NCBI GenBank assembly: GCA_964417785.1
Contig: CAYQJO010000067.1
Coordinates: 1-18,725 of the forward strand
Direction: 5' to 3'
DNA from: an uncultured Anaerolineaceae bacterium
GTDB taxonomy: Bacteria > Chloroflexota > Anaerolineae > Aggregatilineales > Phototrophicaceae
DNA length: 18,725 nucleotides
Part shown: piece by piece, positions 1,253-18,653 of the stretch
Position numbering within the stretch: the stretch's first letter is position 1
Layout: each line of letters starts with the position of its first letter
Translations under genes and position numbers: made by a program
Notes under the pieces: model-generated
Told to the model about the DNA's origin: nothing
What the model saw: only the letters and a program-made list of their open reading frames with translations
Databases searched by the model: none

Positions 1253-2956
1253 ATGAAACGATTGACCCGTTTTGTCGGTTTGAGCCTTGCGCTCATTATG
1301 GTCATGGGACTCGGCTTCGGTGCCGTCAGCGCTCAGGACGAGACCACCATTGTGATCGGGTGGGAGCAGGAACCCAACCAGCTTTCCCCGATTGTGGCGA
1401 TGACCTTTGCCTCGGTGATGCAGCAGTTCTACCAGCGCGACGTCTGGGACTGGGACACCAACAACCAGATTTACCCTGTGATGGTGGAAGAAATCCCTTC
1501 ATTTGATAACGGTATGGTCGAGACCTTGGAAAGCGGTAACACCCAGGTGACCTACAATCTGCGTGAAGGCATGATGTGGTCCGATGGTGAAGCAATCACC
1601 AGCGCCGACTGCGAATTCTGGCATTCAGAAATCATGATGAAGCCGGAGTCGGGTACCATTCAGCGTGGTACATACCCCGAGGTCGTTGAGAGCTTCGAGG
1701 TCGTGGATGACTACACCTTCGTCATGACCTACAGCGTTCCCTTCCCGGACTTCCTGTCGCAGAACACCGCCACCTGTGGCTATCCGGAGCATATTCTGCG
1801 CCCGCAGCTTGAAGAGTTCGGCACGCTGGACGATGCCCCGTTCTTCACCGTGAACGCGGTTTCGGATATGGTTGGTTATGGTCCCTACGTTTTCGGAAAC
1901 TGGACCATCGGCAGCGAAGCGACCTGGGTGAAAAACGACATGTGGGACGGTCAGGAACCGGCCATCGACCGCATTATCGCCCGCTTCATCCCCGAAGCTG
2001 CCCAGATGCGTAACGCGCTGGAAGCCGGTGAAATCGACATGGCCTTCAACTTCGCCGACGATCAGGTGGATGCTTACCTGGAAATCCCCGGTGTTGAAGT
2101 CTGGAGTACTCCCGGTGTCTATGGTGATGCCATCTGGATCAACTACGGCAACAACGTAGAAGGTTCACCGCTGGAAGACGTCAATGTGCGTAAGGCCATC
2201 ATCCACGCGATTGATCGTGTCTCCCTGGCGGAAGAACTGGTCGGCCCCGGTACAGACGTGCCGCGTAGCTGGTACGCGCAGCAGTTCTGGCCTTCGGAAG
2301 AAGACCTGCCGCTGATCGAGTATGATCCCGAAATGGCCGCTCAACTTCTGGATGAAGCCGGCTGGACCCTGGATGAAAATGCTACGATCCGCACCAACGC
2401 CGATGGCGATCAGTTGATCCTCCGCTTCTTCACCACCAGTGGCCGCCAGATCCGTGAAAACTACCAGGTTTTCATCGCAGACTACCTGGGCGAGGTCGGC
2501 ATCAGCGTTCAGCTTCTGCCCATCCCCTCCGGTATCCTGTTCGACACATTCGTCAATCGCGGTGTTCTCTCCACTGGCGACTTCGACCTGGCTCTGTTCG
2601 CACTGAGTACCGATCCGCTTTCGCCCTTCGCGGATGCGCCCACCTGGCTGGGTTGCTCGGGTCTGCCTACAGCCGAGAACCCCAGTGGCCGTAACGGTTG
2701 GGGGGCCTGCTCGCCAGAATTTGACGAACTTGACCTCCAGGTCGGCACAACCGTCGATCCGGAAGAGCGTATGCAACTGGCGCACCAGGCTCAGGTTGAG
2801 TTGTTCGGTGATGAGCAGTTCTGGCACGGCCTGTACCTGCGTCCCACCTGGTACGCGGTCCAGAGCGAAGTTTTCGATCCCAACACGATGCAGGACCTGG
2901 GTACACTGAGCAGCAACTGGTTCAACAAGGTGGAATTCTGGCAGCCGGCCAGCTAA
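1253..2956 (+). CDS. ABC transporter substrate-binding protein, family 5 (peptide/nickel/opine type, DppA/OppA-like), secreted.
   Basis: It has an N-terminal signal peptide MKRLTRFVGLSLALIMVMGLGFGAVSAQ and the length (567 aa) and composition typical of SBP_bac_5. The site GGAGGAG lies 8 nt upstream of the start codon. Two DppB/DppC-type permease genes follow. Confidence 0.85.
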   Translation: MKRLTRFVGLSLALIMVMGLGFGAVSAQDETTIVIGWEQEPNQLSPIVAMTFASVMQQFYQRDVWDWDTNNQIYPVMVEEIPSFDNGMVETLESGNTQVTYNLREGMMWSDGEAITSADCEFWHSEIMMKPESGTIQRGTYPEVVESFEVVDDYTFVMTYSVPFPDFLSQNTATCGYPEHILRPQLEEFGTLDDAPFFTVNAVSDMVGYGPYVFGNWTIGSEATWVKNDMWDGQEPAIDRIIARFIPEAAQMRNALEAGEIDMAFNFADDQVDAYLEIPGVEVWSTPGVYGDAIWINYGNNVEGSPLEDVNVRKAIIHAIDRVSLAEELVGPGTDVPRSWYAQQFWPSEEDLPLIEYDPEMAAQLLDEAGWTLDENATIRTNADGDQLILRFFTTSGRQIRENYQVFIADYLGEVGISVQLLPIPSGILFDTFVNRGVLSTGDFDLALFALSTDPLSPFADAPTWLGCSGLPTAENPSGRNGWGACSPEFDELDLQVGTTVDPEERMQLAHQAQVELFGDEQFWHGLYLRPTWYAVQSEVFDPNTMQDLGTLSSNWFNKVEFWQPAS

Positions 2957-2979
2957 TTCCTGATACGTAAGTCTGAATG

Positions 2980-3010
2980 GGGGAGCGTGTTGCTACGCTC
3001 CCCTTGTTGA
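2980..3010 (+). terminator. Intra-operon hairpin between the substrate-binding protein gene and the first permease gene (GGGGAGCGT-gttgct-ACGCTCCCC, then TTGTTG). Likely a partial terminator or mRNA-stabilising stem-loop.
   Basis: A perfect 9-bp GC-rich stem (2980-2988 pairing with 2995-3003) with a 6-nt loop is followed by a T-containing tract. Placement immediately after the SBP stop codon is the classic arrangement that gives excess SBP transcript. Confidence 0.45.
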
Positions 3011-3031
3011 GTCCCCAGGAAGGACCGCACC

Positions 3032-4063
3032 ATGACGAAATATGTACTGCGCCGGCTGTTTCAGGCTGTGCCACTGATTATTCTTATCACGGTTTTCGTG
3101 TTTCTTCTGCTGAAGACTGCCGGTGATCCGCTGGCGGAGATGTCGTTGGACCCCAACTTTACCGAAGCCGACCGGTTGTTGTTCCGTGCGCGTTTTGGTC
3201 TGGACGATCCACTGCCGCTGCAATTCGTCCACTGGTTGATCGGGGATGACTGGTACAAACGTGACATCAACGGTGATGGCGAACCCGATGAATATGGGAC
3301 ACGTCTGGGCATCCTGCGCGGCGACCTGGGAGACTCGATCTCGTTCCGAAAACCGGTTTCCGAAGTGATCGGTGACTTCCTGCCCAATACGCTGCTGCTC
3401 GGTGTAACCGCTTATGTCTTCACGCTGGTGGTTTCGCTGGTCCTGGGGGTTTTGGCGGCCCTACGCCAGTATACATTGTTTGATAATGTCGTCACAGCAG
3501 GGGCTTTCATAACCTACTCCATACCCGTGTTCCTGCTCGCATTGATCCTGGTGCAGGTATTTGCGATTCAATTTGGCCGATGGGGATTGCCCAGTTTACC
3601 GGTATCGGGTATGTACGATCCACGCGGTGACGAAAGTCTTGACGAACTGCTGCGGCATATGGTCCTGCCGGTATTGAGCCTGTCGCTCATCAGCATTGCC
3701 GGCTACAGTCGCTACATCCGTTCATCCATGCTGGAAGTGATTAACACCGATTATGTGCGTACAGCCCGTGCGAAAGGTCTGGGCGAACGCCGGATTGTTT
3801 TTCTCCATGCCTTGAAAAACGCGGCTCTGCCGTTGATTACGCTGGTGGGACTGGACCTGCCCTTCATCCTGGGCGGGGCCATCATCACGGAGACGATTTT
3901 CTCCTGGCCGGGAATGGGGCGTATGTATATTCAGGCGCTCAACGGTCTGGATTCGGCGTTGCTGATCGCCTTTGTGTTGATGACGGCGGTGGCGGTGGTG
4001 CTGTTCCAGTTGTTTACAGACATCACCTATGCGTGGCTCGATCCGCGTATCCGGTTTGATTAG
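3032..4063 (+). CDS. ABC transporter permease, DppB/OppB-like.
   Basis: The N-terminus MTKYVLRRLFQAVPLIILITVFVFLLL is typical of OppB/DppB. It has multiple transmembrane segments and the conserved permease loop. The site AGGAAGGA lies upstream of the ATG. Confidence 0.85.
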   Translation: MTKYVLRRLFQAVPLIILITVFVFLLLKTAGDPLAEMSLDPNFTEADRLLFRARFGLDDPLPLQFVHWLIGDDWYKRDINGDGEPDEYGTRLGILRGDLGDSISFRKPVSEVIGDFLPNTLLLGVTAYVFTLVVSLVLGVLAALRQYTLFDNVVTAGAFITYSIPVFLLALILVQVFAIQFGRWGLPSLPVSGMYDPRGDESLDELLRHMVLPVLSLSLISIAGYSRYIRSSMLEVINTDYVRTARAKGLGERRIVFLHALKNAALPLITLVGLDLPFILGGAIITETIFSWPGMGRMYIQALNGLDSALLIAFVLMTAVAVVLFQLFTDITYAWLDPRIRFD

Positions 4064-4081
4064 TCAGGGAGATCATCTGAT

Positions 4082-5032
4082 ATGGCTACCGTTTCCCAGA
4101 GTGCGGACAATGTTGTGGCGCTGGAAGCAGAGAAGCGGCAGGCGGACAGCCTGTGGAAAATTATGCGCCGCCGCTTTTTCGGCCACCGGATGGCCGTGTT
4201 CGGCGTTTTCCTGTTAACTGTGATCGCTGCGTATGTTGTCGGCGGGTCGTTCTTCTTATCCGAAGCCGACGCCAACAAAACCAACCTCCGCGCTCGGTTG
4301 GAAGCGCCCAGCGCTGAATACCCCTTTGGTACCGATGAGGCCGGGCGCAATGTGCTGGCACGGACGATCTACGGTGGGCAGATTTCCCTGGCAATCGGTG
4401 TGGTATCCGTTGTAATTTCGATCAGTATGGGGACGGTTGTCGGACTGGTCGCCGGGTACTTTGGTGGTCTGGTCGATGCCCTCCTCATGCGCATTGTCGA
4501 AGCCCTGCTGGCGATCCCGGTGCTGGTGCTGCTGTTGATGCTCAACCGGATTTTCATCGAGTACAACACCTCGAACGTGGTCATTTTAGGGCGTGAGCTA
4601 AGCCTGACGGTGGTGGCGATTATTATCATCATCGGTTTCACTGGCTGGATGGGGCTTTCGCGGATTGTTCGGTCGATGGTGCTTTCGCTCAAAGAGCAGG
4701 AATTTGTTCTGGCGGCCCGCACGATGGGTGCGGGCAGTGCGCGTATTATCTTCCTCCATATTCTGCCCAACTGCATCGCGCCGATTGTGGTAGCGGCGAC
4801 CCTGGGCATCGGACAGGCCATTATCATTGAGACGGCGCTGAGCTTCCTCGGATTTGGCGTCATGCCGCCGACGGCAACCTGGGGCAACATCATCGAAAAC
4901 GCACGCGGCAACATTGATGACTGGTGGTGGTTGTGGGTGTTCCCCGGCATCTTCATCACGGTCACGGTGCTGTCAATTAACTTTATTGGCGATGGTTTGC
5001 GCGACGCCCTTGACCCACGCAGCTTGAAGTGA
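4082..5032 (+). CDS. ABC transporter permease, DppC/OppC-like.
   Basis: It has multiple transmembrane helices and the permease loop IETALSFLGFG. A GGGAG ribosome-binding site sits 8 nt upstream. The gap to the preceding permease gene is 18 nt. Confidence 0.85.
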   Translation: MATVSQSADNVVALEAEKRQADSLWKIMRRRFFGHRMAVFGVFLLTVIAAYVVGGSFFLSEADANKTNLRARLEAPSAEYPFGTDEAGRNVLARTIYGGQISLAIGVVSVVISISMGTVVGLVAGYFGGLVDALLMRIVEALLAIPVLVLLLMLNRIFIEYNTSNVVILGRELSLTVVAIIIIIGFTGWMGLSRIVRSMVLSLKEQEFVLAARTMGAGSARIIFLHILPNCIAPIVVAATLGIGQAIIIETALSFLGFGVMPPTATWGNIIENARGNIDDWWWLWVFPGIFITVTVLSINFIGDGLRDALDPRSLK

Positions 5033-10905: not shown

Positions 10906-11712
10906 TTAATTGCTGCTGACCGAAGCCGGCTGTGGATCACGGAAGCGGCGAGCATCATCGAGTTCTACCTCTGTCTCCGCCTCTGACTTGGCCCGCGCAA
11001 TGCTGTAGATCAATACGCCATAGCCACACTTGGCCGCCACATCAGCGATGCAGTAACCAACCTGGATGGCGATCAACGCGGTTGCACCTTCAACGCCGAG
11101 GATCGGCAGGAGATAGACCATCGGGTAAAAGCCCCAGGTGGCGAAGAGGAGCAGCCGAGCGTTGCGTACCAGCACTTTAGCCTCACCGGGCTGGCGATCA
11201 ATCGCTTCGCCAAGCTGGGAAAACAGCGCATACAGGATGTAAAGGAAGGGCAGGGTGCTGATGAAGCCCCACAGGGCGCGGGTACCGTTATCCGGTGCGA
11301 TCTCGCCCGGATAGCCCAGGATGACCATCGCAGCAGCAGCCAGACCCAGACGGAAAGTCATCTTGGCGGCCTGCGCACGCGGCAGCGTCAGCACGGCCAC
11401 CAGTTCAGCCACCAGCAGCGGCACGGTCAGCAGCCAATCGACGTAGCGATAGGCGTCGTTAAATGGTTCTCCGCTGGCAACGTAGGTGCCGTCCTGCAAG
11501 ACATAAGCACCAGCCCAACTCTCAAAAATGCGAAAATAGTGGTAACCGGCTACGGCCACAACCAGCGCCGACATCACCAGCGCCCCGCGATACTTCGGGG
11601 CAACATCCTGGCGCTTCAGCACGAAGAAGATGAATGACGCGAACATGGCCGCAAAGGTGAAAGAGAAAGCGTTGTAGACCAGACTGTACTGATCGGGGGT
11701 AAGTTCTACCAT
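10906..11712 (-). CDS. Microbial (type I) rhodopsin, a proteorhodopsin/xanthorhodopsin-family light-driven proton pump with a DTE motif.
   Basis: Helix C reads RYVDWLLTVPLLVAEL (Asp, Thr, Glu at the BR85/89/96 positions). Helix G reads IADVAAKCGYG, carrying the Schiff-base lysine. Helix F reads WGFYP. Helix E reads LWGFIST, with Gly at the bacteriorhodopsin Trp138 position, as in xanthorhodopsin/Gloeobacter rhodopsin. Helix B carries His in GYHYF. Seven hydrophobic helices are present. The start is ATG 11712 or GTG 11715. Confidence 0.9.
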   Translation of the reverse strand: MVELTPDQYSLVYNAFSFTFAAMFASFIFFVLKRQDVAPKYRGALVMSALVVAVAGYHYFRIFESWAGAYVLQDGTYVASGEPFNDAYRYVDWLLTVPLLVAELVAVLTLPRAQAAKMTFRLGLAAAAMVILGYPGEIAPDNGTRALWGFISTLPFLYILYALFSQLGEAIDRQPGEAKVLVRNARLLLFATWGFYPMVYLLPILGVEGATALIAIQVGYCIADVAAKCGYGVLIYSIARAKSEAETEVELDDARRFRDPQPASVSSN

Positions 11713-11715
11713 CAC

Positions 11716-11990: not shown

Positions 11991-13460
11991 TTATGCCGGA
12001 GTCTCGTCGTCCTCTTCCGGCAGGATGGGCGGTCGTTCAACTGGCGCTGTACCGTTTTCCATCTTGATCGCGTTGAACATCTCCGATATTTTCACCAGCG
12101 TCTCCTGGAAGTCGTCACCAGTCAGTGCCTCAACTTTGGTGGTGAACATATCCGCCACCTGCGGGATGTTCAGCAGCATATCCAGGAAGGTATTGCCGGT
12201 AACGCCGTGACCGTTGCCCCCGCCAAAATCGACGATGCGAACGTTGCCACCAAGACCGGCCAGGGCCTGGGCGATGGCTTCCGCCTTGGCGATGTCGGCT
12301 CTGGTGAGCTGCTCGACCACGTACTGGCGCAGGTTGATCTCACCCTCGGCAGCACTGGCGGCGGCGATTTCGCGCCGGCCTTCGGCTTCCGCCAGGAGTT
12401 TGGCGCGTTCACCTTCGGCTTCCGCCAGGAATTGTGCTCGCATACCCTCAGCCTCGGCTTTGTTGCCTTCGGCTTCTGCCTGCTTCATGGCTTTCAGCGC
12501 GTCTGCGTCGGCTTGCGCTTTCTCGCGGATGGCGCGGGCCTGAGCTTCAGCTTCGATCTCAATACGGCGGCGTTCGGCTTCGGCGCGGATTTCAGTCGCC
12601 TGGCGCGACGCCCGGGCCGGGACCAGCACCTCGGCTTCCTGCTGCTGCTCGACGGCCAGTGCCTTGCGCTTCTGCACTTCCTGACCGCTGTCGGCTTCGG
12701 CCAATCCCACCTGGCGGTTGACCTCGACCTCACGCAGCTTCAGCGCTTCGCGTTGCGCCAGAATCTCACGCTGCGCGTCCAGTTCGGCCTGTTCCGCTGC
12801 TTGCAGCGCTTCGGCGGCCTTGACTCGCGCCTGACGGTCGGCTTCCGCTTCGGCGATGGCGGCGTCACGCTTAACGGCAGCGATTTGTGGGGCGGCCATC
12901 GCTTGTAGATAGCCTTGCTCGTCGGTGATCTCCTCGATACCCATCGAGATGACCTTGACACCCATCGCGGCCACATCGTCCGACGCCAGTTCCTGCACTT
13001 TCTGGACGAAGCTGTCGCGGTCGCGGTGGATGGCTTCAACCGACATCTGCCCGACGATGGCGCGGAAGTTGGCGCTCAGGGTTTCCTCAATAACCCGGCG
13101 GACTTCATCTGAGGACTTGTCGAGAAAAGCACGGGTAGCGGTGCGCAGCGCCGATTCTTCGCTGTCGATCTGGACCTGGGCCACCCAGTCTAACTGGATC
13201 GGTACGCCGCTCTCAGTATAGACCTCATCCTTCTCGGTCTTGATCGTCATGATGGTGATGTCGAGCAGCTTGTAGCTCTCAATCACCGGCCATACAAAGA
13301 CACCACCGTTCGTCACCAGCCGCGATTGTCCGCGACCGAAAACAACCATGACCTTGCTCGGCGGAACTTTATGATAATAGCGTGTAATAAAAGCGATGAG
13401 TGCCGTGAGCAGCACCACCGCCCCGACAACAACGATGATCCATTCAAAACCACCTTCCAT
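11991..13460 (-). CDS. floT: Flotillin (SPFH/band-7 domain, FloT/YuaG-like) with a long Ala/Glu-rich coiled-coil region.
   Basis: It has an N-terminal transmembrane helix and the SPFH domain (VFVWPVIESYKLLDITIMTI...). The EA-rich repeats (AEAEADRQARVKAAEALQAAEQAELDAQ...) are characteristic of flotillins. An AGGAG ribosome-binding site is present. It starts 10 nt after the stop codon of the nfeD-like gene. Confidence 0.88.
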   Translation of the reverse strand: MEGGFEWIIVVVGAVVLLTALIAFITRYYHKVPPSKVMVVFGRGQSRLVTNGGVFVWPVIESYKLLDITIMTIKTEKDEVYTESGVPIQLDWVAQVQIDSEESALRTATRAFLDKSSDEVRRVIEETLSANFRAIVGQMSVEAIHRDRDSFVQKVQELASDDVAAMGVKVISMGIEEITDEQGYLQAMAAPQIAAVKRDAAIAEAEADRQARVKAAEALQAAEQAELDAQREILAQREALKLREVEVNRQVGLAEADSGQEVQKRKALAVEQQQEAEVLVPARASRQATEIRAEAERRRIEIEAEAQARAIREKAQADADALKAMKQAEAEGNKAEAEGMRAQFLAEAEGERAKLLAEAEGRREIAAASAAEGEINLRQYVVEQLTRADIAKAEAIAQALAGLGGNVRIVDFGGGNGHGVTGNTFLDMLLNIPQVADMFTTKVEALTGDDFQETLVKISEMFNAIKMENGTAPVERPPILPEEDDETPA

Positions 13461-13470
13461 GTCTTGCTCC

Positions 13471-14004
13471 TTAATTGTTTCGTTTCTTCTTCACAATGAG
13501 CCGGCCTTCACGCACATCAACAACCTCTACGATGTCGCCCTTTTCCAGCAAGACTTCATCGCTGCTGGCTTTGACCGGATACTTCATCACCGACCCGGCC
13601 TCCACCATTGCTTCGCCGGTTTTGCCTGGTGGGATGTTGACTGTGATGCGAGCGAAAGCCCCGATCAAGGATTCGCTGGTTACAACATCGGTGGATTGCT
13701 GCCGGATAACAAAGTTCAACACCGCAGCCGTCGAGCGTCCGAAAATGAGGCCGAAAACGGCTCCAGCGGCCAGGCTGAAGGCCAGGTTCCAGCCGGAGAG
13801 TTCCCCAACCAGACCCATCGAGCCAAAACCAGTCATAAACGCCGCGATGACCATGCAGCCCAGGTTACGAGCTTCCGATGTATCCGCGCCGACATCGACG
13901 TCTACATCCACATCGGTGTCAATGTCGGCAAAATCTCCCAGGAAAATGGAGATCAGCAGAAATGCCACACCACCCGCCATGATTGCCGCGAATATCCACG
14001 TCAT
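13471..14004 (-). CDS. NfeD-family membrane protein (YuaF-like), partner of flotillin.
   Basis: It has N-terminal transmembrane helices plus a C-terminal OB-fold-like tail (GDIVEVVDVREGRLIVKKK). An AGGAG ribosome-binding site is present. The nfeD-floT gene order is conserved in many bacteria. Confidence 0.78.
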   Translation of the reverse strand: MTWIFAAIMAGGVAFLLISIFLGDFADIDTDVDVDVDVGADTSEARNLGCMVIAAFMTGFGSMGLVGELSGWNLAFSLAAGAVFGLIFGRSTAAVLNFVIRQQSTDVVTSESLIGAFARITVNIPPGKTGEAMVEAGSVMKYPVKASSDEVLLEKGDIVEVVDVREGRLIVKKKRNN

Positions 14005-14136: not shown

Positions 14137-14853
14137 GTGAGCGATTTCAAGCCCGACATCTGGCGTCTTCAGGCGCAGTTCAACACGCAGGGTCTCGTAG
14201 AGGCGTTGGCGAACGATGACGCCGGTATTCGTCGGCGTGCCGCTGCCGCATTACGTGCGCTGGGGGCCTATCATGCCATCCCTGAGCTTGAGGCCGCCCT
14301 GGAAAGCGAATCCGACCCGGAGACCCGTGCGAATATGTTGGCGGCGCTGGCGACGCTGCACCAGGAGCGGGAACGCAAAGAGCAGGATGAAGCGACGCTC
14401 GAAGTACCCGGTGCGCGGTTGACCGAGGTGGACCGCTTGCTTCAGGCCCTTCAGGTGACGACCGATCCCGATACCATCATCCAACTGGCACGCAAATTAG
14501 GTGATCTGGGAGCCAAGCAGGCCGTCGATACCCTGGTGGTGCTGTTCAACAATGCCCAGTTGCCCATCCGTGTGCGATTGGCGGTGGCGGAAGTTCTGCT
14601 TAAACTGGAAAGTGCGCCGATTGAGGTGGCGCTGCTGGGGGCGCTTTCCAGCCCACAGTGGCGGGTGCGCCGCAACAGTGCGGCTATTCTGGGCCAACTT
14701 CGGGCGGTCTGGGCGGTTGAACCGCTGGCGGTGGCGCTGCGCGATGAGCATGAAATGGTGCGCCGGACTGCCTATGCGGCGTTGAGGAATATCGGTACGC
14801 CGGAAGCACTGCGTGCGATACGCCGGAAGGAAGAGGACCAGGAGGGGTTATGA
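14137..14853 (+). CDS. HEAT-repeat (PBS-lyase-like) protein, cytoplasmic.
   Basis: There are repeated helical units of about 30 aa with the pattern xxVRxxAAxALGxIG (IRRRAAAALRALG, VRRNSAAILGQL, VRRTAYAALRNIG). The start is GTG. The stop codon overlaps the downstream ATG (ATGA). Confidence 0.72.
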   Translation: MSDFKPDIWRLQAQFNTQGLVEALANDDAGIRRRAAAALRALGAYHAIPELEAALESESDPETRANMLAALATLHQERERKEQDEATLEVPGARLTEVDRLLQALQVTTDPDTIIQLARKLGDLGAKQAVDTLVVLFNNAQLPIRVRLAVAEVLLKLESAPIEVALLGALSSPQWRVRRNSAAILGQLRAVWAVEPLAVALRDEHEMVRRTAYAALRNIGTPEALRAIRRKEEDQEGL

Positions 14854-16520
14854 AGAAGGCGCTGGCGCTGGGCGTTGTCGTCTGGCTGATGATTGGCGGT
14901 CTTGTGGCGCAGACCGGTGTGACCGCCGTTGTGGTGAACGAATACGCCAACATTCGTATCGTCCCGGCCATTGGAGCCGAGGTGATCGCGACCGTTCCTG
15001 CCGGGTATCTTTTTGACGTGATTACCGCACGAACCGGCGACAATATCTGGCTGCGCATCGACTTCAACGGTGAGGAGGGTTGGGTACACACCTCCACGCT
15101 GAGTGTGTTGACCGGCGATGCTGCCGTGCTGCCGGTGGCTGACCCACGCTCGATACCTTTTGGCGGTGTCGAAGTGCCGCGCTCCGGCCTGACCGAGGCT
15201 ACAAGCGACATCCTGGCGCGAGCAACCGACTGGCTGCGTGTGCGAGCCGGTCCCAGTACGGGCTATCCGGTCCTGGCGAATGCCCCCATAGACACCTTAA
15301 TGCCCCTGCTTGGTCGGACGGAGAGCAGCAGTTGGATTCAGGTCAATTATGAGGGTACACTCGGTTGGGTATCCAGCCGCTATTTGCAACTGCCGCTTGG
15401 TTTTGGCTTCGCTGCGCTGCCAGTCGGCGGAATTATCGCGTCCGCGCCCATTGAGAGCGCCGCTTCCGGTGAGAATTATCTGGAGGTGCTGAAGTTGATG
15501 CAATCGCGCATTGATCTGGCACAACCATCGCTGGATCAGATTCGTGCATCCTGGACCGATGCCGCGCTGACCGGGCGAGCGGCCTGTAATCAGGCCTATC
15601 CCGTGCGTCCGAGTGATTACAACATCCCCAATCCGATTCTGGCGGCGTTCTACGACCAACTGAACCCGCTGGTTGGCCTGTTCAACGATGCCATGTTCAA
15701 CGTGCGCTACGCCATTGACCTGTTTATCGACGCCTGTGAGCAGCCGGGACCGGTCAACACGGTCGGGCAGGCGCTGGTCGTCGGTGCGCTGGATACGGTG
15801 GCGCTGGCGGATGCGCAGTTTGCGGAACTGCGGCGCAAACTCAATGAGTTGATCCCGCCGCCGGTGGAGCCAGGTCTGGATCAATGTATCTTCACCTTCG
15901 CCAATCAGGTCGATATTCTGCCAGTTATCCCACTCGGCCAGATCATCACGGATGGCTTTACACCGCGCAATGTCGCCTCCGGCTATTGTGTCGATCTGGT
16001 TGAGGGGCAGTCGGTCGTGGTCGAGATTTTGCAGTTTCCTGGCAGCAACCTCGAAATGCTGTTTTCGATCAGTCCGATAGACAATCCGACCGGCTTCCTG
16101 GCGACCAACCGCAGCGATGCCACTGTGCCGCGCCAGATTGCGGGACCGGTCCCGATTCCGGCCACCGGGCGCTACATCATCATTCTGAGCCATACCGCAC
16201 TGGAACCGCCGCAGGGTGAGTTTGGTCTGCTGGTTTCAGATGCGCTGACGGCGGTACCGGGTGGCACGCTCCAGGTAGATGCGGTGACTGGCGACCTGAT
16301 CCAGGTCATGCCGACTGCCAATCCGCTGCTGCCGACGGCCATTCCCGCTGGCGGCGGTGTGTGTCCCAGCCCCAATTTGAACTGTTTCCAGCTACAATCG
16401 ATTGTGGGTGCGAATTGCGCTCTGGCACAGGCCTGCCTGACACCGGCGAATGCAGCGATTCTGGACCCGGACGGAGATGGCGTACCCTGCGAACAAATCC
16501 TCTGCCCGGAGACGTCATAG
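14850..16520 (+). CDS. Secreted multidomain protein: signal peptide, two bacterial SH3-like domains, a central Cys-containing region, a PPC-like beta-sandwich (tentative) and a C-terminal Excalibur calcium-binding motif.
   Basis: The signal peptide is MKKALALGVVVWLMIGGLVAQT. The SH3b-like segments are NIRIVPAIGAEVIATVPAGYLFDV...WLRI and WLRVRAGPSTGYPVLANAPIDTLMPLLG...WIQV. The sequence DPDGDGVPCE at the C-terminus matches the Excalibur DxDxDGxxCE signature. A GGAGGGG ribosome-binding site is present. Confidence 0.78.
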   Translation: MKKALALGVVVWLMIGGLVAQTGVTAVVVNEYANIRIVPAIGAEVIATVPAGYLFDVITARTGDNIWLRIDFNGEEGWVHTSTLSVLTGDAAVLPVADPRSIPFGGVEVPRSGLTEATSDILARATDWLRVRAGPSTGYPVLANAPIDTLMPLLGRTESSSWIQVNYEGTLGWVSSRYLQLPLGFGFAALPVGGIIASAPIESAASGENYLEVLKLMQSRIDLAQPSLDQIRASWTDAALTGRAACNQAYPVRPSDYNIPNPILAAFYDQLNPLVGLFNDAMFNVRYAIDLFIDACEQPGPVNTVGQALVVGALDTVALADAQFAELRRKLNELIPPPVEPGLDQCIFTFANQVDILPVIPLGQIITDGFTPRNVASGYCVDLVEGQSVVVEILQFPGSNLEMLFSISPIDNPTGFLATNRSDATVPRQIAGPVPIPATGRYIIILSHTALEPPQGEFGLLVSDALTAVPGGTLQVDAVTGDLIQVMPTANPLLPTAIPAGGGVCPSPNLNCFQLQSIVGANCALAQACLTPANAAILDPDGDGVPCEQILCPETS

Positions 16521-16581: not shown

Positions 16582-18531
16582 TCAACCGTTGGGATTGGTT
16601 TCCGTATACAGGGTGCCGACCTCATCTGCTGTGAGGGCCTGCGTAAAAATCTGCAGGTCATAGTAGGTACCCATGAAGTGGCGGTTACTGTTGTTGCCGC
16701 GTTCGTGTCCAATGCCGAACCAGTAGGATGAATCCCAGTGATCGAAGTTGATGTTGCCGTAATCGGACCTGGACTGCGCCGCTGCACCGTTAATGTAAAG
16801 TGTGCCGGTGCCGTAGGCATAGGTGAAGACGACGTGTGTCGCCTGAGTGGAGACCCCACTCTGTTCGACCATACGCTCCATACCGTTGTCGTCGTTGGCA
16901 TCGCGACGGAACCGGACCTGCCATTTGCCGCCGTTCTGCCCCAGGGTGAAATTGCGTTTGTTGCCGTCCCAGGACAGGGTGACGATGCGGCCCGGCCCGC
17001 TCTGCGAGGTATTAGCCGGTTTGATCCAGGCCGAGATGGTGATGGCCTCGCTGGATTGGATGGCCCCGGTCAGTGTCGCGCCACTGGTACCGAAGCTGAC
17101 ATTCTGGCTGGTGATCACCAGGGCGTTGCCGGTCCAGGAGTAGCCGCTGTTGTCAGAACCGGAGGTCAGCGATAAGTTCATGCCACTCATGCGATCTGTC
17201 ACGGTGGAGCCGCTGTCCTCGAAGGCGTAGGCAACATAGGGTGCGACCGTGAAGCTATCGCAGCCATCAGGTGTGCCATCTTTGTCCACATCAATGTTGT
17301 CGTCATGGCCGGGACACTGATCGCTGGCGTCAAGTACGCCGTCGTTGTCACTATCCTGGGGTTCTGCGCCACCACCGCTGTCGTCGCTGCCGGTAGCTTC
17401 TATGATCTCGATACCGGCGATGGCCGCTTTGCGACTGTTTGGATGGCCGTCAAGCACCAGGTTCAGGTGGCCGTCGCTGACGCTCACCTCACGTTCCAGG
17501 ATCACGCTTTCCCAGGTTTGACCGGTCGTGTTAAGAGCAGAGAAACCCGTTTTCCAGGTAGTGCCTTCGACTGCCACATCCATAATCCGCTCGTAACTGC
17601 CAGTGCTGGAGTCAACGAAGTGTAACCGCACCAGATAGGTGCCGCTGGGCAGAGTAGGTGACTGCCAGGTCACCTTGCTGGGTGAATCGTTGCCCAGCAG
17701 GAAGCCGCTGCAAACCGGGTACGTCCCGCCATCCTCCCAGGAGCTTTGCCAGTCGCTGCCGTTCCAGATCAGAATGTTACGTTTGCTACAGGTGCCGTCG
17801 GATTTATTCTGGATTTCACTGGCGTCGGTTGTCAGGTCCTTGCCCACGATCCAAGTGTGGCCGTCCATTGAAACCGGCTGATACTTGCTGTAATCGGCGG
17901 TTTCATTGTTGTAGCCGGGTTCGGGCGAGCCGAAGTTGATATGGTACTCAGTGTCACAGGCATCGCCGCGATTGTCTCCATCGTAATCCGACTGACCCGC
18001 ATTTATATCGTCAGGGCAGTTGTCACTATCGTTAGGCACGCTGTCTCCGTCGGTGTCGTTGGGGTCAGTGACACTGCCCGTGCCGCCGCCACCGCCAGTG
18101 ATGGTGCCACCGTCACCGGTGCTACCGCCACCATCGCCCGTACTGCCGCCGTCATCGCCTGTGCTACCGCCGTCATCACCCGTACTGCCGCCGTCATCAC
18201 CCGTACTGCCGCCGTCATCACCCGTGCTGCCGCCGTCATCACCCGTGCTGCCACCGCCATCGCCTGTGCTGCCACCACCATCGCCTGTGCTGCCGCCACC
18301 GCTACCATACTGTTCGGGGGAATATCCACCAGCACCACCGGCATCAACCACATAGGTGGACCCATTAGGGTTGGGGTCGCCCATCTGATAAAGGATATTG
18401 CTGAAGACGTTGCCGATGGTTGGGCCTACGATCATCAGTATCACGATGACGACCAATGCCACCAGCGAGAGGATCAGCGCATACTCTGTGGTTCCTTGTC
18501 CTTTCGTAGGATTGGGGTTGCTTTTTGGCAT
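16582..18531 (-). CDS. Large surface protein with an Flp/Fap-pilin-like N-terminus (class III signal, G/XXXXEY). It is fused to GGSTGD(G/D) heptad repeats, two thrombospondin type-3 calcium-binding repeats, a malectin-like carbohydrate-binding domain and a C-terminal LamG/ConA-like jelly-roll domain.
   Basis: The N-terminus reads MPKSNPNPTKG/QGTTEYALILSLVALVVIVILMIVG. The TSP3 repeats are DPNDTDGDSVPNDSDNCPDDINAGQSDYDGDNRGDACD and DSDNDGVLDASDQCPGHDDNIDVDKDGTPDGCD. The malectin-like region runs from HINFGSPEPGY to KAAIAGIEIIE. The LamG-like region runs ITISAWIKP...FTLGQ...THVVFTY...LYINGAAA...YYDLQIF. The probable start is ATG 18531 (GAGG 8 nt upstream). The ORF track extends to a TTG at 18549. 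Confidence 0.8.
   Translation of the reverse strand: MPKSNPNPTKGQGTTEYALILSLVALVVIVILMIVGPTIGNVFSNILYQMGDPNPNGSTYVVDAGGAGGYSPEQYGSGGGSTGDGGGSTGDGGGSTGDDGGSTGDDGGSTGDDGGSTGDDGGSTGDDGGSTGDGGGSTGDGGTITGGGGGTGSVTDPNDTDGDSVPNDSDNCPDDINAGQSDYDGDNRGDACDTEYHINFGSPEPGYNNETADYSKYQPVSMDGHTWIVGKDLTTDASEIQNKSDGTCSKRNILIWNGSDWQSSWEDGGTYPVCSGFLLGNDSPSKVTWQSPTLPSGTYLVRLHFVDSSTGSYERIMDVAVEGTTWKTGFSALNTTGQTWESVILEREVSVSDGHLNLVLDGHPNSRKAAIAGIEIIEATGSDDSGGGAEPQDSDNDGVLDASDQCPGHDDNIDVDKDGTPDGCDSFTVAPYVAYAFEDSGSTVTDRMSGMNLSLTSGSDNSGYSWTGNALVITSQNVSFGTSGATLTGAIQSSEAITISAWIKPANTSQSGPGRIVTLSWDGNKRNFTLGQNGGKWQVRFRRDANDDNGMERMVEQSGVSTQATHVVFTYAYGTGTLYINGAAAQSRSDYGNINFDHWDSSYWFGIGHERGNNSNRHFMGTYYDLQIFTQALTADEVGTLYTETNPNG
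18097..18303 (-). repeat. About ten tandem copies of a 21-bp unit (consensus CGTRCTGCCGCCGTCATCRCC on the plus strand) encoding the GGSTGD(G/D) heptads of the adhesin.
   Basis: Units can be read directly at 18118, 18139, 18160, 18181, 18202, 18223, 18244 and 18265. Several are identical. Confidence 0.85.
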
Positions 18532-18653
18532 AAATAACCTCTGCTGCAATAATGACTGATAAAGTTAAAATGAAAACTTGTTGCCATTAGTGTAACAGCT
18601 TTATGCATTGAGGCTGCTGGAATTTACGGAAATTTGGTATTTTTTCAGATTTT

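Follow-up and report, generated by a model that had tools for sequence, protein, structure and literature searches.

Flp pilins are defined as tiny headless helices and, to our knowledge, the Tad pilus is the only type IV filament that is built without globular domains. Described Flp pilins are single helices of 45-80 amino acids (aa) without an extra domain (PMC10710030). Among type IVa (T4a) pilins, modular forms are widespread. Raynaud et al. (2021) surveyed more than 1,200 modular pilins with IPR012902, using this T4a-type entry as the sole search motif, and found PF13385/concanavalin A (ConA)-like lectin modules among the commonest grafts; the proposed place of such pilins is the filament tip or, given a flexible linker, the shaft (PMC8179133). 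The term 'Flp' is absent from the text of that survey (PMC8179133). In Tad systems, TadE, TadF and TadG (KilL, KilM and KilN) are large, TadV-processed, pilin-like minor pilins whose modular C-terminal domains customise the tip (PMC12075869). In open-access text we found no literature on Flp pilins with grafted domains and, on Flp in Chloroflexi, nothing beyond the proposal that Tad loci confer adhesiveness in Anaerolineae. Here we describe a gene in an 18,725-nt stretch of DNA from an uncultured Anaerolineaceae bacterium (contig CAYQJO010000067.1 of assembly GCA_964417785.1, forward strand; the whole stretch is called the window below). Its 649-aa product begins with what is, judged by its sequence, a complete Flp pilin, which continues through a long flexible linker into Ca-binding and lectin-type domains. 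Our preferred reading, held with moderate confidence, is that the product would be a modular type IVc (Flp/Tad) pilin, processed by TadV and displayed by the Tad machinery as a Ca-stabilised lectin adhesin.

The gene and its N-terminal Flp module

The gene and its pilin module comprise the following parts.

16582..18531, minus strand: coding sequence of the putative modular Flp pilin, from the open reading frame (ORF) list; 649 aa plus stop codon, ATG start
18538..18542, minus strand: Shine-Dalgarno-like AGAGG, read from the sequence, 6 nt upstream of the ATG at 18531
18499..18531, minus strand: predicted leader, MPKSNPNPTKG, residues 1-11; its last residue is the Gly before the presumed Flp-type cleavage site
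18382..18498, minus strand: predicted mature Flp pilin module, residues 12-50, QGTTEYALILSLVALVVIVILMIVGPTIGNVFSNILYQM, with E at +5 and Y at +6; identified by homology to PF04964 pilins

The start of the protein, MPKSNPNPTKG/QGTTEYALILSLVALVVIVIL, fits the pattern G/XXXXEY followed by a hydrophobic stretch. Read as ...TKG/QGTTEYALILSLVALVVIVILMIV, it has the leader ending in Gly, the XXXXEY and the hydrophobic run by which Flp-type pilins are recognised. When residues 1-65 were searched alone against a database of 5.8 billion proteins, 229 proteins were matched at E values of about 1e-9. Of the 120 matches listed, nearly all have PF04964 and 99 are exactly 48 aa long; identities are 75-82%. 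Where a source name is given, it is mostly Flp/PilA or Flp family type IVb pilin; the organisms, where named, are mostly metagenome-assembled genomes (MAGs) of Anaerolineales/Chloroflexi. The alignment with the small pilins spans the leader, G/QGxxEYALIL, the hydrophobic helix and the GPTIGNVFSNI tail. Because it reaches from the leader to that tail, residues 1-50 correspond to an entire pilin, and by this homology the N-terminus is a complete Flp pilin, not a motif only. The invariant residues of the alignment are G11, Q12, E16, Y17, A18, L19, I20, G36, P37, G40, N41, F43 and S44; G11, E16 and Y17 are also invariant in alignments with 31 Flp relatives, and G11 is so among Flp pilins and other Flp fusions alike. 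The gene of one relative, P0046, belongs to a typical tad locus, in which three tandem flp genes are accompanied by genes for a TadZ-like ParA/receiver protein, a CpaF-type T2SSE ATPase and two T2SSF (TadB/C) proteins. AlphaFold2 (AF2), given an alignment of Flp sequences, modelled a single helix at residues 13-51 with a predicted local distance difference test score (pLDDT) of up to 97; the roughly 100 residues behind the helix have no structure in the model. The length of 649 aa and the four further domain regions place the protein outside the small single-helix size range of Flp pilins (about 45-80 aa).

A simple possibility is that the protein is an ordinary Sec-secreted lectin, the signal peptide of which resembles the Flp motif by chance. 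In line with this, the Pfam models do not give significant scores on their own: Flp_Fap reaches 13.5 bits, far below its cutoff of 32.2, and Class_IIIsignal 12.2 bits, below its cutoff of 23.7. A match of about 40 residues at 75-82% identity and E of about 1e-9 among 5.8 billion proteins is, however, not what such an origin predicts. The hydrophobic stretch runs to about 21 residues, and the typical Sec h-region is shorter; no AxA-type site was seen after it on reading the sequence. The N-terminal homology search may thus be taken to refute chance resemblance effectively. A preliminary description of this DNA had placed a Flp-type class III motif at the head of a 649-aa ORF and proposed that the Flp signal is fused to a Ca-binding, lectin-type ectodomain. 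The minus-strand ORF is indeed intact and bears the motif and hydrophobic stretch, and the 229 matches extend the second proposal from a signal to a full-length Flp homologue. The same description would have given up its reading if the N-terminus scored neither as Flp/Fap nor as a class III signal and the genome lacked any prepilin peptidase; with Pfam the N-terminus scores as neither, and this negative outcome was overturned by the direct homology search.

Since AGAGG lies 6 nt upstream of the ATG at 18531, and overlaps the reading from an alternative in-frame TTG at 18549, the ATG is the likely start. The TTG, 18 nt farther upstream, would give a protein of 655 aa with six residues more. A scan for promoters and terminators returned nothing above shuffled expectation.

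It was also considered whether the fusion might be an artefact, either of assembly or of a frameshift through which a small flp gene and a downstream lectin gene came to be read as one. A 21-nt tandem repeat beside the pilin module is the type of sequence that assemblers mishandle. The same gene is, however, present in full on contig DAOTUL010000263.1 (52,961 bp, GCA_034437435.1), as an ORF of identical length (1950 nt). The two full copies differ by 3 nt substitutions and one amino acid change (A191V) and have equal numbers of tandem repeats; over the 12,144 nt in which the two contigs overlap, 11 positions differ. A C-terminal fragment of the gene is also held in a JGI metagenome. With a second assembly that is near-identical down to the number of repeats, a misassembled or frameshifted origin is very unlikely. 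Furthermore, the pilin module reads in frame straight into the linker with no stop codon between them, and further Flp fusions lie on many independent contigs (see below). We regard an artefact as effectively excluded.

Cargo domains and other long Flp-module proteins

Behind the pilin module the protein is made up as follows.

18061..18381, minus strand: flexible acidic Gly-rich linker, residues 51-157, with about 10 GGSTGD[GD] heptads; from repeat structure, composition and AF2
17950..18060, minus strand: thrombospondin type-3 (TSP3)-like, predicted Ca-binding Asp-rich cluster A, residues 158-194, DTDGDSVPNDSDNCP...DYDGDNRGDACD; from Pfam and NCBIfam stretches
17377..17949, minus strand: malectin-like beta-sandwich domain, residues 195-385; marginal in Pfam, from BLASTP and a joint profile
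17263..17358, minus strand: TSP3-like, predicted Ca-binding cluster B, residues 392-423, DSDNDGVLDASDQCPGHDDNIDVDKDGTPDGCD; from an NCBIfam stretch and the exhaustive search
16597..17238, minus strand: LamG/ConA-like lectin jelly roll, residues about 432-645; from Pfam, AF2 and Foldseek

Tandem Repeats Finder resolved the repeat of the linker as 10.3 copies of a 21-nt unit at 18081-18297 with 83% matches. Of the 107 residues of the linker 46 are Gly (43%), 17 Asp, 14 Thr and 13 Ser, and in the AF2 model it has pLDDT below 50 and no secondary structure. The 21-nt repeat could vary in copy number and so change the length of the tether; the copies are equal in the two available assemblies.

The two TSP3 segments share 58-74% identity with proteins that carry a PF02412 annotation. 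NCBIfam stretches cover residues 158-194 and 392-423, and Pfam TSP_3 gives 23.2 bits in total, just below its cutoff of 25, with the best stretch at 158-180. In an exhaustive search with residues 195-649, TSP3-rich proteins matched query positions 198-234, which are residues 392-428. The LamG/ConA-like assignment is solid: Laminin_G_3 scores 72.4 bits against a cutoff of 27.6 (E 6e-20), and the AF2 model of this part, at pLDDT 70-90, was matched by Foldseek with probability 1.00 to trans-sialidase lectin domains and BoNT Hc-N (clostridial neurotoxin). For the malectin-like domain the Pfam match (residues 284-383) reaches 21.5 bits and thus stays just below its cutoff of 23. BLASTP aligned the domain to two malectin regions of a 2459-aa protein, P0288, with E of 3e-12 and 2e-8, and one of these regions lies within a Pfam Malectin match (E 8e-27 for whole P0288). 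A joint profile matched malectin of the Protein Data Bank (PDB) and the malectin-like ectodomains of FERONIA and ANXUR at 1e-8 to 1e-6, this profile being dominated by P0288. In an AF2 model of residues 195-649 the LamG half was usable, and the malectin-like half, for which the alignment held no homologues, had pLDDT below 50.

The architecture that the preliminary description had outlined is strongly supported, more so than by the Pfam searches that it had proposed. Its flexible Gly-rich heptad array appears as the 21-nt units encoding GGSTGD[GD], its two TSP3 repeats as clusters A and B, and its LamG/ConA-like jelly roll both as a Pfam match and as a ConA-like lectin fold. Its malectin-like domain is backed by BLASTP and the joint profile but not by Pfam at threshold. 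As to the profile searches that it had proposed, Laminin_G_3 scored above threshold, but TSP_3 and Malectin came out just below and Flp_Fap far below.

Reading of the sequence revealed no LPXTG-type or PEP-CTERM-type C-terminal sorting motif. The only match that phmmer returned for the C-terminal part against PDB sequences was a weak one to an S-layer-domain protein. An NCBIfam match to 'TafC fimbrial protein' was rejected: it reaches 24 bits against a cutoff of 410 and is confined to the LamG region. TafC belongs to the haloarchaeal Tat-dependent fimbriae.

No full-length homologue of the protein besides itself was found by word-indexed or exhaustive search; the full-length word-indexed search was swamped by TSP3 and low-complexity matches. 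The exhaustive HMMER search with residues 195-649 gave 4339 relatives, mostly through LamG and essentially all through LamG or TSP3; in the top 150 the best-matching region was never the malectin-like one. P0288 is the sole one of these relatives with an Flp N-terminus. Its domains are an Flp module, PPC, Malectin, PKD, malectin-like and LamG, and it has the order malectin-like then LamG in common with the protein described here. Another long protein, P0012 (1114 aa), has an Flp module, four TSP3, MAM-like, Reelin-B and BNR domains; in this protein no PF04964 match is found at E <= 0.1.

Long Flp-module proteins recur in other Chloroflexota. Among 80 genome loci retrieved with an N-terminal alignment as query, three hold giant ORFs, ten hold ORFs of 98-138 aa, and the remainder are of ordinary size. 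Two of the giants (L084 and L075) are about 1450 aa long, and the third (L080) is interrupted solely by masked N letters. When metagenomes were scanned with the giant-type N-terminus as seed, 28 long ORFs were found in 80 loci, 17 of them complete (1153-1987 aa). These 17, which we call PA14/MAM giants, align end to end; PA14 is found in 11 of them, InhA-like MAM in 12 and Reelin-B in 5.

L085:922-5301, L089:1334-7294, L092:10001-15397, L084:9872-14353, L075:9908-14350 and 12 more: PA14/MAM giants, from the alignment of 17

The PA14/MAM giants occur in Anaerolineae MAGs and metagenomes, are 1150-1990 aa long and have several MAM-like/Reelin-B-like domains each. Their pilin module is followed by a Pro/Thr-rich linker and by a conserved 'FWxTVT' motif, the 'FW' of which is invariant and lies about 20 residues beyond the module. 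Within the 17-member family the pilin module is the most conserved part, with a pairwise identity of 64% against 33% for the rest, a comparison biased by the retrieval of the loci through their N-termini. The module represents a distinct subtype, GQALVEY...ATGPAIGNVFSNTVYNLL, which is just 41-47% identical to the module described here, and the latter is much closer to the canonical small Flp. For this reason our protein looks like an independent fusion, and the module sequences suggest that it arose separately from the PA14/MAM giants.

In the preliminary description the protein had been called a 'giant pilin'. The architecture is in line with this; as a single oddity it does not stand, since P0012, P0288 and the PA14/MAM family are also headed by Flp modules. 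Judged from these searches, the protein is an orphan of a design that is recurrent in Anaerolineae and belongs to a class that is apparently undescribed. Surveys of domain databases may overlook the giants, because the Flp model is sub-threshold on our protein and on P0012 and reaches E <= 0.001 in none of the 17 PA14/MAM giants (PF04964); a simple N-terminal search recovers dozens.

Flp pilins of intermediate size were seen as well, with a canonical Anaerolineales Flp module and about 70-90 extra residues.

L018:10001-, L058:10001-, L064:918-, L071:10001-, L073:10001-; also L006, L008, L032, L066 and L083: mid-sized Flp pilins of 98-138 aa

In several of these the extra parts resemble one another, being rich in Thr and Val with two Cys ('TVTVTVS...C...C'), and may form a small beta domain. 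The range of lengths suggests a continuum from 48-aa pilins to giants. At two of the giant loci, from two species (L084:4103-9710 and L080:3622-9640), the same upstream neighbours were found, namely FolD, an amidohydrolase and an ornithine/aspartate carbamoyltransferase. As these neighbours are shared, the L084 and L080 giants are positional orthologues in a housekeeping context.

Proposed display by the Tad machinery, and the genomic context

For the protein described here we infer cleavage, incorporation into a pilus, a position in the filament and glycan binding in the following way. The hydrophobic helix would insert the protein into the cytoplasmic membrane with its N-terminus in and its C-terminus out. 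A TadV/CpaA-type prepilin peptidase would then remove MPKSNPNPTKG after Gly11, to leave a mature protein beginning QGTTEY, with Glu at +5 and Tyr at +6. The conserved pilin helix would allow the Tad machinery to build it into an Flp filament, where, as a subunit of low abundance, it would occupy the tip or a few scattered places on the shaft. The acidic Gly-rich tether of about 107 residues and the Ca-binding TSP3 clusters would hold the malectin-like and LamG domains off the filament, and these lectin domains may bind carbohydrate of surfaces, polymers or other cells.

In the structure of the Caulobacter Tad pilus, what is exposed on the filament surface is the C-terminal end of Flp (PMC10710030). 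A domain grafted there would thus face away from the filament, and on a long flexible tether it could be tolerated at the tip or sparsely in the shaft. The main rival to this reading is that the protein is a membrane-anchored surface lectin, in which the helix derived from Flp, whether or not it is cleaved, would do no more than anchor the protein N-in/C-out in the cytoplasmic membrane; the protein would never be polymerised, and the tether would span the wall and expose the lectin domains. Before assembly every pilin is a membrane protein of just this topology (PMC10710030). The disordered tether of 107 aa resembles a wall-spanning stalk, and modules of 600-2400 aa are very bulky for a filament subunit. 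A plain anchor needs hydrophobicity alone, yet G-1, E5, Y6 and the polar GNVFSN tail are invariant in the small pilins and in independently diverged fusions, and the 48-aa pilin has been kept in its entirety, at 75-82% identity. Since G-1, Q1, E5, Y6, the central Gly-Pro and the GNxFS tail are invariant across the small pilins and both kinds of fusion, the features of an assembling pilin seem to be kept, beyond those of a mere anchor. The anchor reading also draws on gene position, as neither our gene nor any other giant Flp-fusion gene is linked to a tad locus. Most small flp genes are tad-unlinked too, however, so that linkage is uninformative on this point. We rate the membrane anchor as a serious but rather improbable explanation.

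Several points count against assembly into a Tad filament with lectin function. The Flp_Fap score lies far below its cutoff. No tad, cpa or prepilin-peptidase genes were found in the window, as the preliminary description had already remarked for tad and cpa, nor in a further 10 kb upstream, and none of the giant Flp-fusion loci examined has tad genes nearby. No report of an Flp pilin with a large C-terminal module polymerising was found in open-access text. Sugar binding by the cargo is predicted from the fold family alone, and the comparison of conservation within the giant family carries the retrieval bias given above. As to linkage, a CpaF homologue lies within 10 kb in only about 10 of 80 small flp loci (L005-L084, from GTDB species representatives). 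The absence of tad genes at our locus thus says little, as most ordinary small flp genes in related genomes are equally unlinked. Anaerolineae flp genes are often scattered away from the tad machinery, the CpaF/TadB/TadC set being within 10 kb of about 10 of the 80.

Another alternative is a bacterial counterpart of the archaeal bindosome, that is, a short envelope-embedded pseudopilus or platform into which the Tad core would build Flp-module cargo, in order to capture glycans for nutrition. Tad pili are closer to archaeal type IV pili than to bacterial type IVb pili, and a horizontal transfer from archaea has been proposed (evidence cited in PMC10710030); in a preprint the Epd pilus of archaea is taken as the origin of bacterial Tad. 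The cargo of our protein and of the related giants is all of carbohydrate-binding type (malectin, LamG, PA14, MAM-like, F5/8C). However, a solute-binding-protein domain is absent from our protein, and the sole solute-binding protein of the window is a separate gene at 1253-2956. That gene lies within the span of an Opp-type ATP-binding cassette (ABC) transporter at 1253-5032, on the opposite strand and 11 kb from our gene, to which no functional link is seen. No Bas-like accessory genes were seen either. A bindosome counterpart is suggested by analogy alone and seems unlikely.

The window further holds genes for HtrA, a phosphatase-family protein, a SurA-like peptidyl-prolyl isomerase, an aldo-keto reductase, a rhodopsin, SPFH/NfeD proteins, a HEAT protein and an SH3 protein. 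The 10 kb beyond it add a MacB-type transporter, a proline dehydrogenase, a WecA-like GT4 protein, an epimerase and a 353-aa membrane protein. Other ORFs with an Flp or N-methyl motif were found neither in the window nor in the locus of the second assembly (L001). A conserved link between flp and an NAD-epimerase, which lies upstream here and beside flp genes in L002, was considered and rejected, the two epimerases being just 29% identical. The rhodopsin gene (10906-11715, minus strand) is of the microbial type (Bac_rhodopsin, E 1.7e-38) and adjoins the SPFH/NfeD pair (11991-13460 and 13471-14004, both minus strand). Our gene is flanked by those of the SH3-domain protein (14850-16520, plus strand) and of the 353-aa membrane protein (L001:8774-9835, plus strand), which has a Thr/Pro-rich linker. 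Common to these two proteins is a Cys-containing segment of about 100 aa (BLASTP 28% identity, E 2e-6) without a Pfam match.

Comparison with known systems

If Flp modules carry 600-2,400 residues of cargo into or onto Tad filaments, the strategy of domain grafting covers all major pilin classes. Adhesiveness and association with polysaccharides have been proposed for Anaerolineae (PMC4877987), and the arrangement, if true, would supply a molecular basis for both. It would likewise be a bacterial parallel to the archaeal cargo proteins with class III signals. We tentatively suggest a still wider idea, that Tad/Flp of Chloroflexota (Anaerolineae) may be a general display platform and a bacterial analogue of the bindosome. 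On this view the prepilin peptidase would cleave a whole class of Flp-module proteins, ranging in length from about 100 aa to about 2,460 aa, which would then become part of Flp filaments or be attached to them. The outcome would be glycan-binding, 'functionalised' pili with malectin, LamG, PA14, MAM-like and F5/8C cargo, and the protein described here would be an independently evolved member of the class.

Among described proteins, PilC (ConA-like lectin) and PilB (vWA) of S. sanguinis are closest in function and, like our protein, join a pilin module to a grafted adhesive domain. Modular pilins consist of an N-terminal pilin module and at least one C-terminal domain that is not specific to pili, and this is also the arrangement found here. 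The T4a modular pilins differ from it in their N-methylation motif (G/FTLIE) and in a globular head with a short linker; in place of these our protein has a headless Flp helix of 39 residues and a disordered tether of about 107 aa, bears several cargo domains, and would belong to the type IVc (Tad) class. N_methyl (PF07963/IPR012902) does not match it at E <= 1, and the pattern G[FMLIVYA][TS][LIVM][LIVMPT]E is found in no frame of the window. It therefore falls outside the T4a modular pilin set, the N-methylation motif being absent. One T4a-type protein with PF07963, P0144 (457 aa), carries a Laminin_G_3 domain 39% identical to that of our protein; owing to this relationship, the same lectin subfamily appears on two pilin classes.

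TadE, TadF and TadG have a module of the TadE-like family with a pilin-like beta-sheet head and are encoded in or near tad/kil loci, whereas our protein has an Flp-type module, is tad-unlinked and shows no match to TadE-like (PF07811) at E <= 1. The bindosome proteins GlcS, AraS and TreS of Sulfolobus resemble it as large sugar-binding proteins with a pilin-type N-terminus that are encoded away from the assembly machinery. They are, however, archaeal and BasEF-dependent and carry the solute-binding cargo of ABC transporters. Our protein has no solute-binding domain; it would depend on a bacterial Tad system, and its cargo consists of beta-sandwiches like those of lectins and carbohydrate-binding modules.

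With the Flp/Fap pilins, such as Flp1 of Aggregatibacter, PilA of Caulobacter and the 48-aa Flp of Anaerolineales, our protein shares the Gly-ended leader, G/XXXXEY, the hydrophobic helix and the polar tail, but it has about 600 extra residues and so breaks with the small size that defines them. In overall design it resembles the Anaerolineae Flp giants (P0288, P0012 and the PA14/MAM proteins at L075, L080, L084 and L085-L114), which also combine an N-terminal Flp module, a low-complexity linker and beta-sandwich cargo of the carbohydrate-binding type; the pilin modules of these giants, with GQALVEY...ATGPAIGNVFSNTVYNLL and the 'FWxTVT' motif, make up a subgroup of their own at 41-47% identity to that of our protein. 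Taken together, this is the modular-pilin idea extended to the smallest pilin class, with a type IVc/Flp pilin as the carrier.

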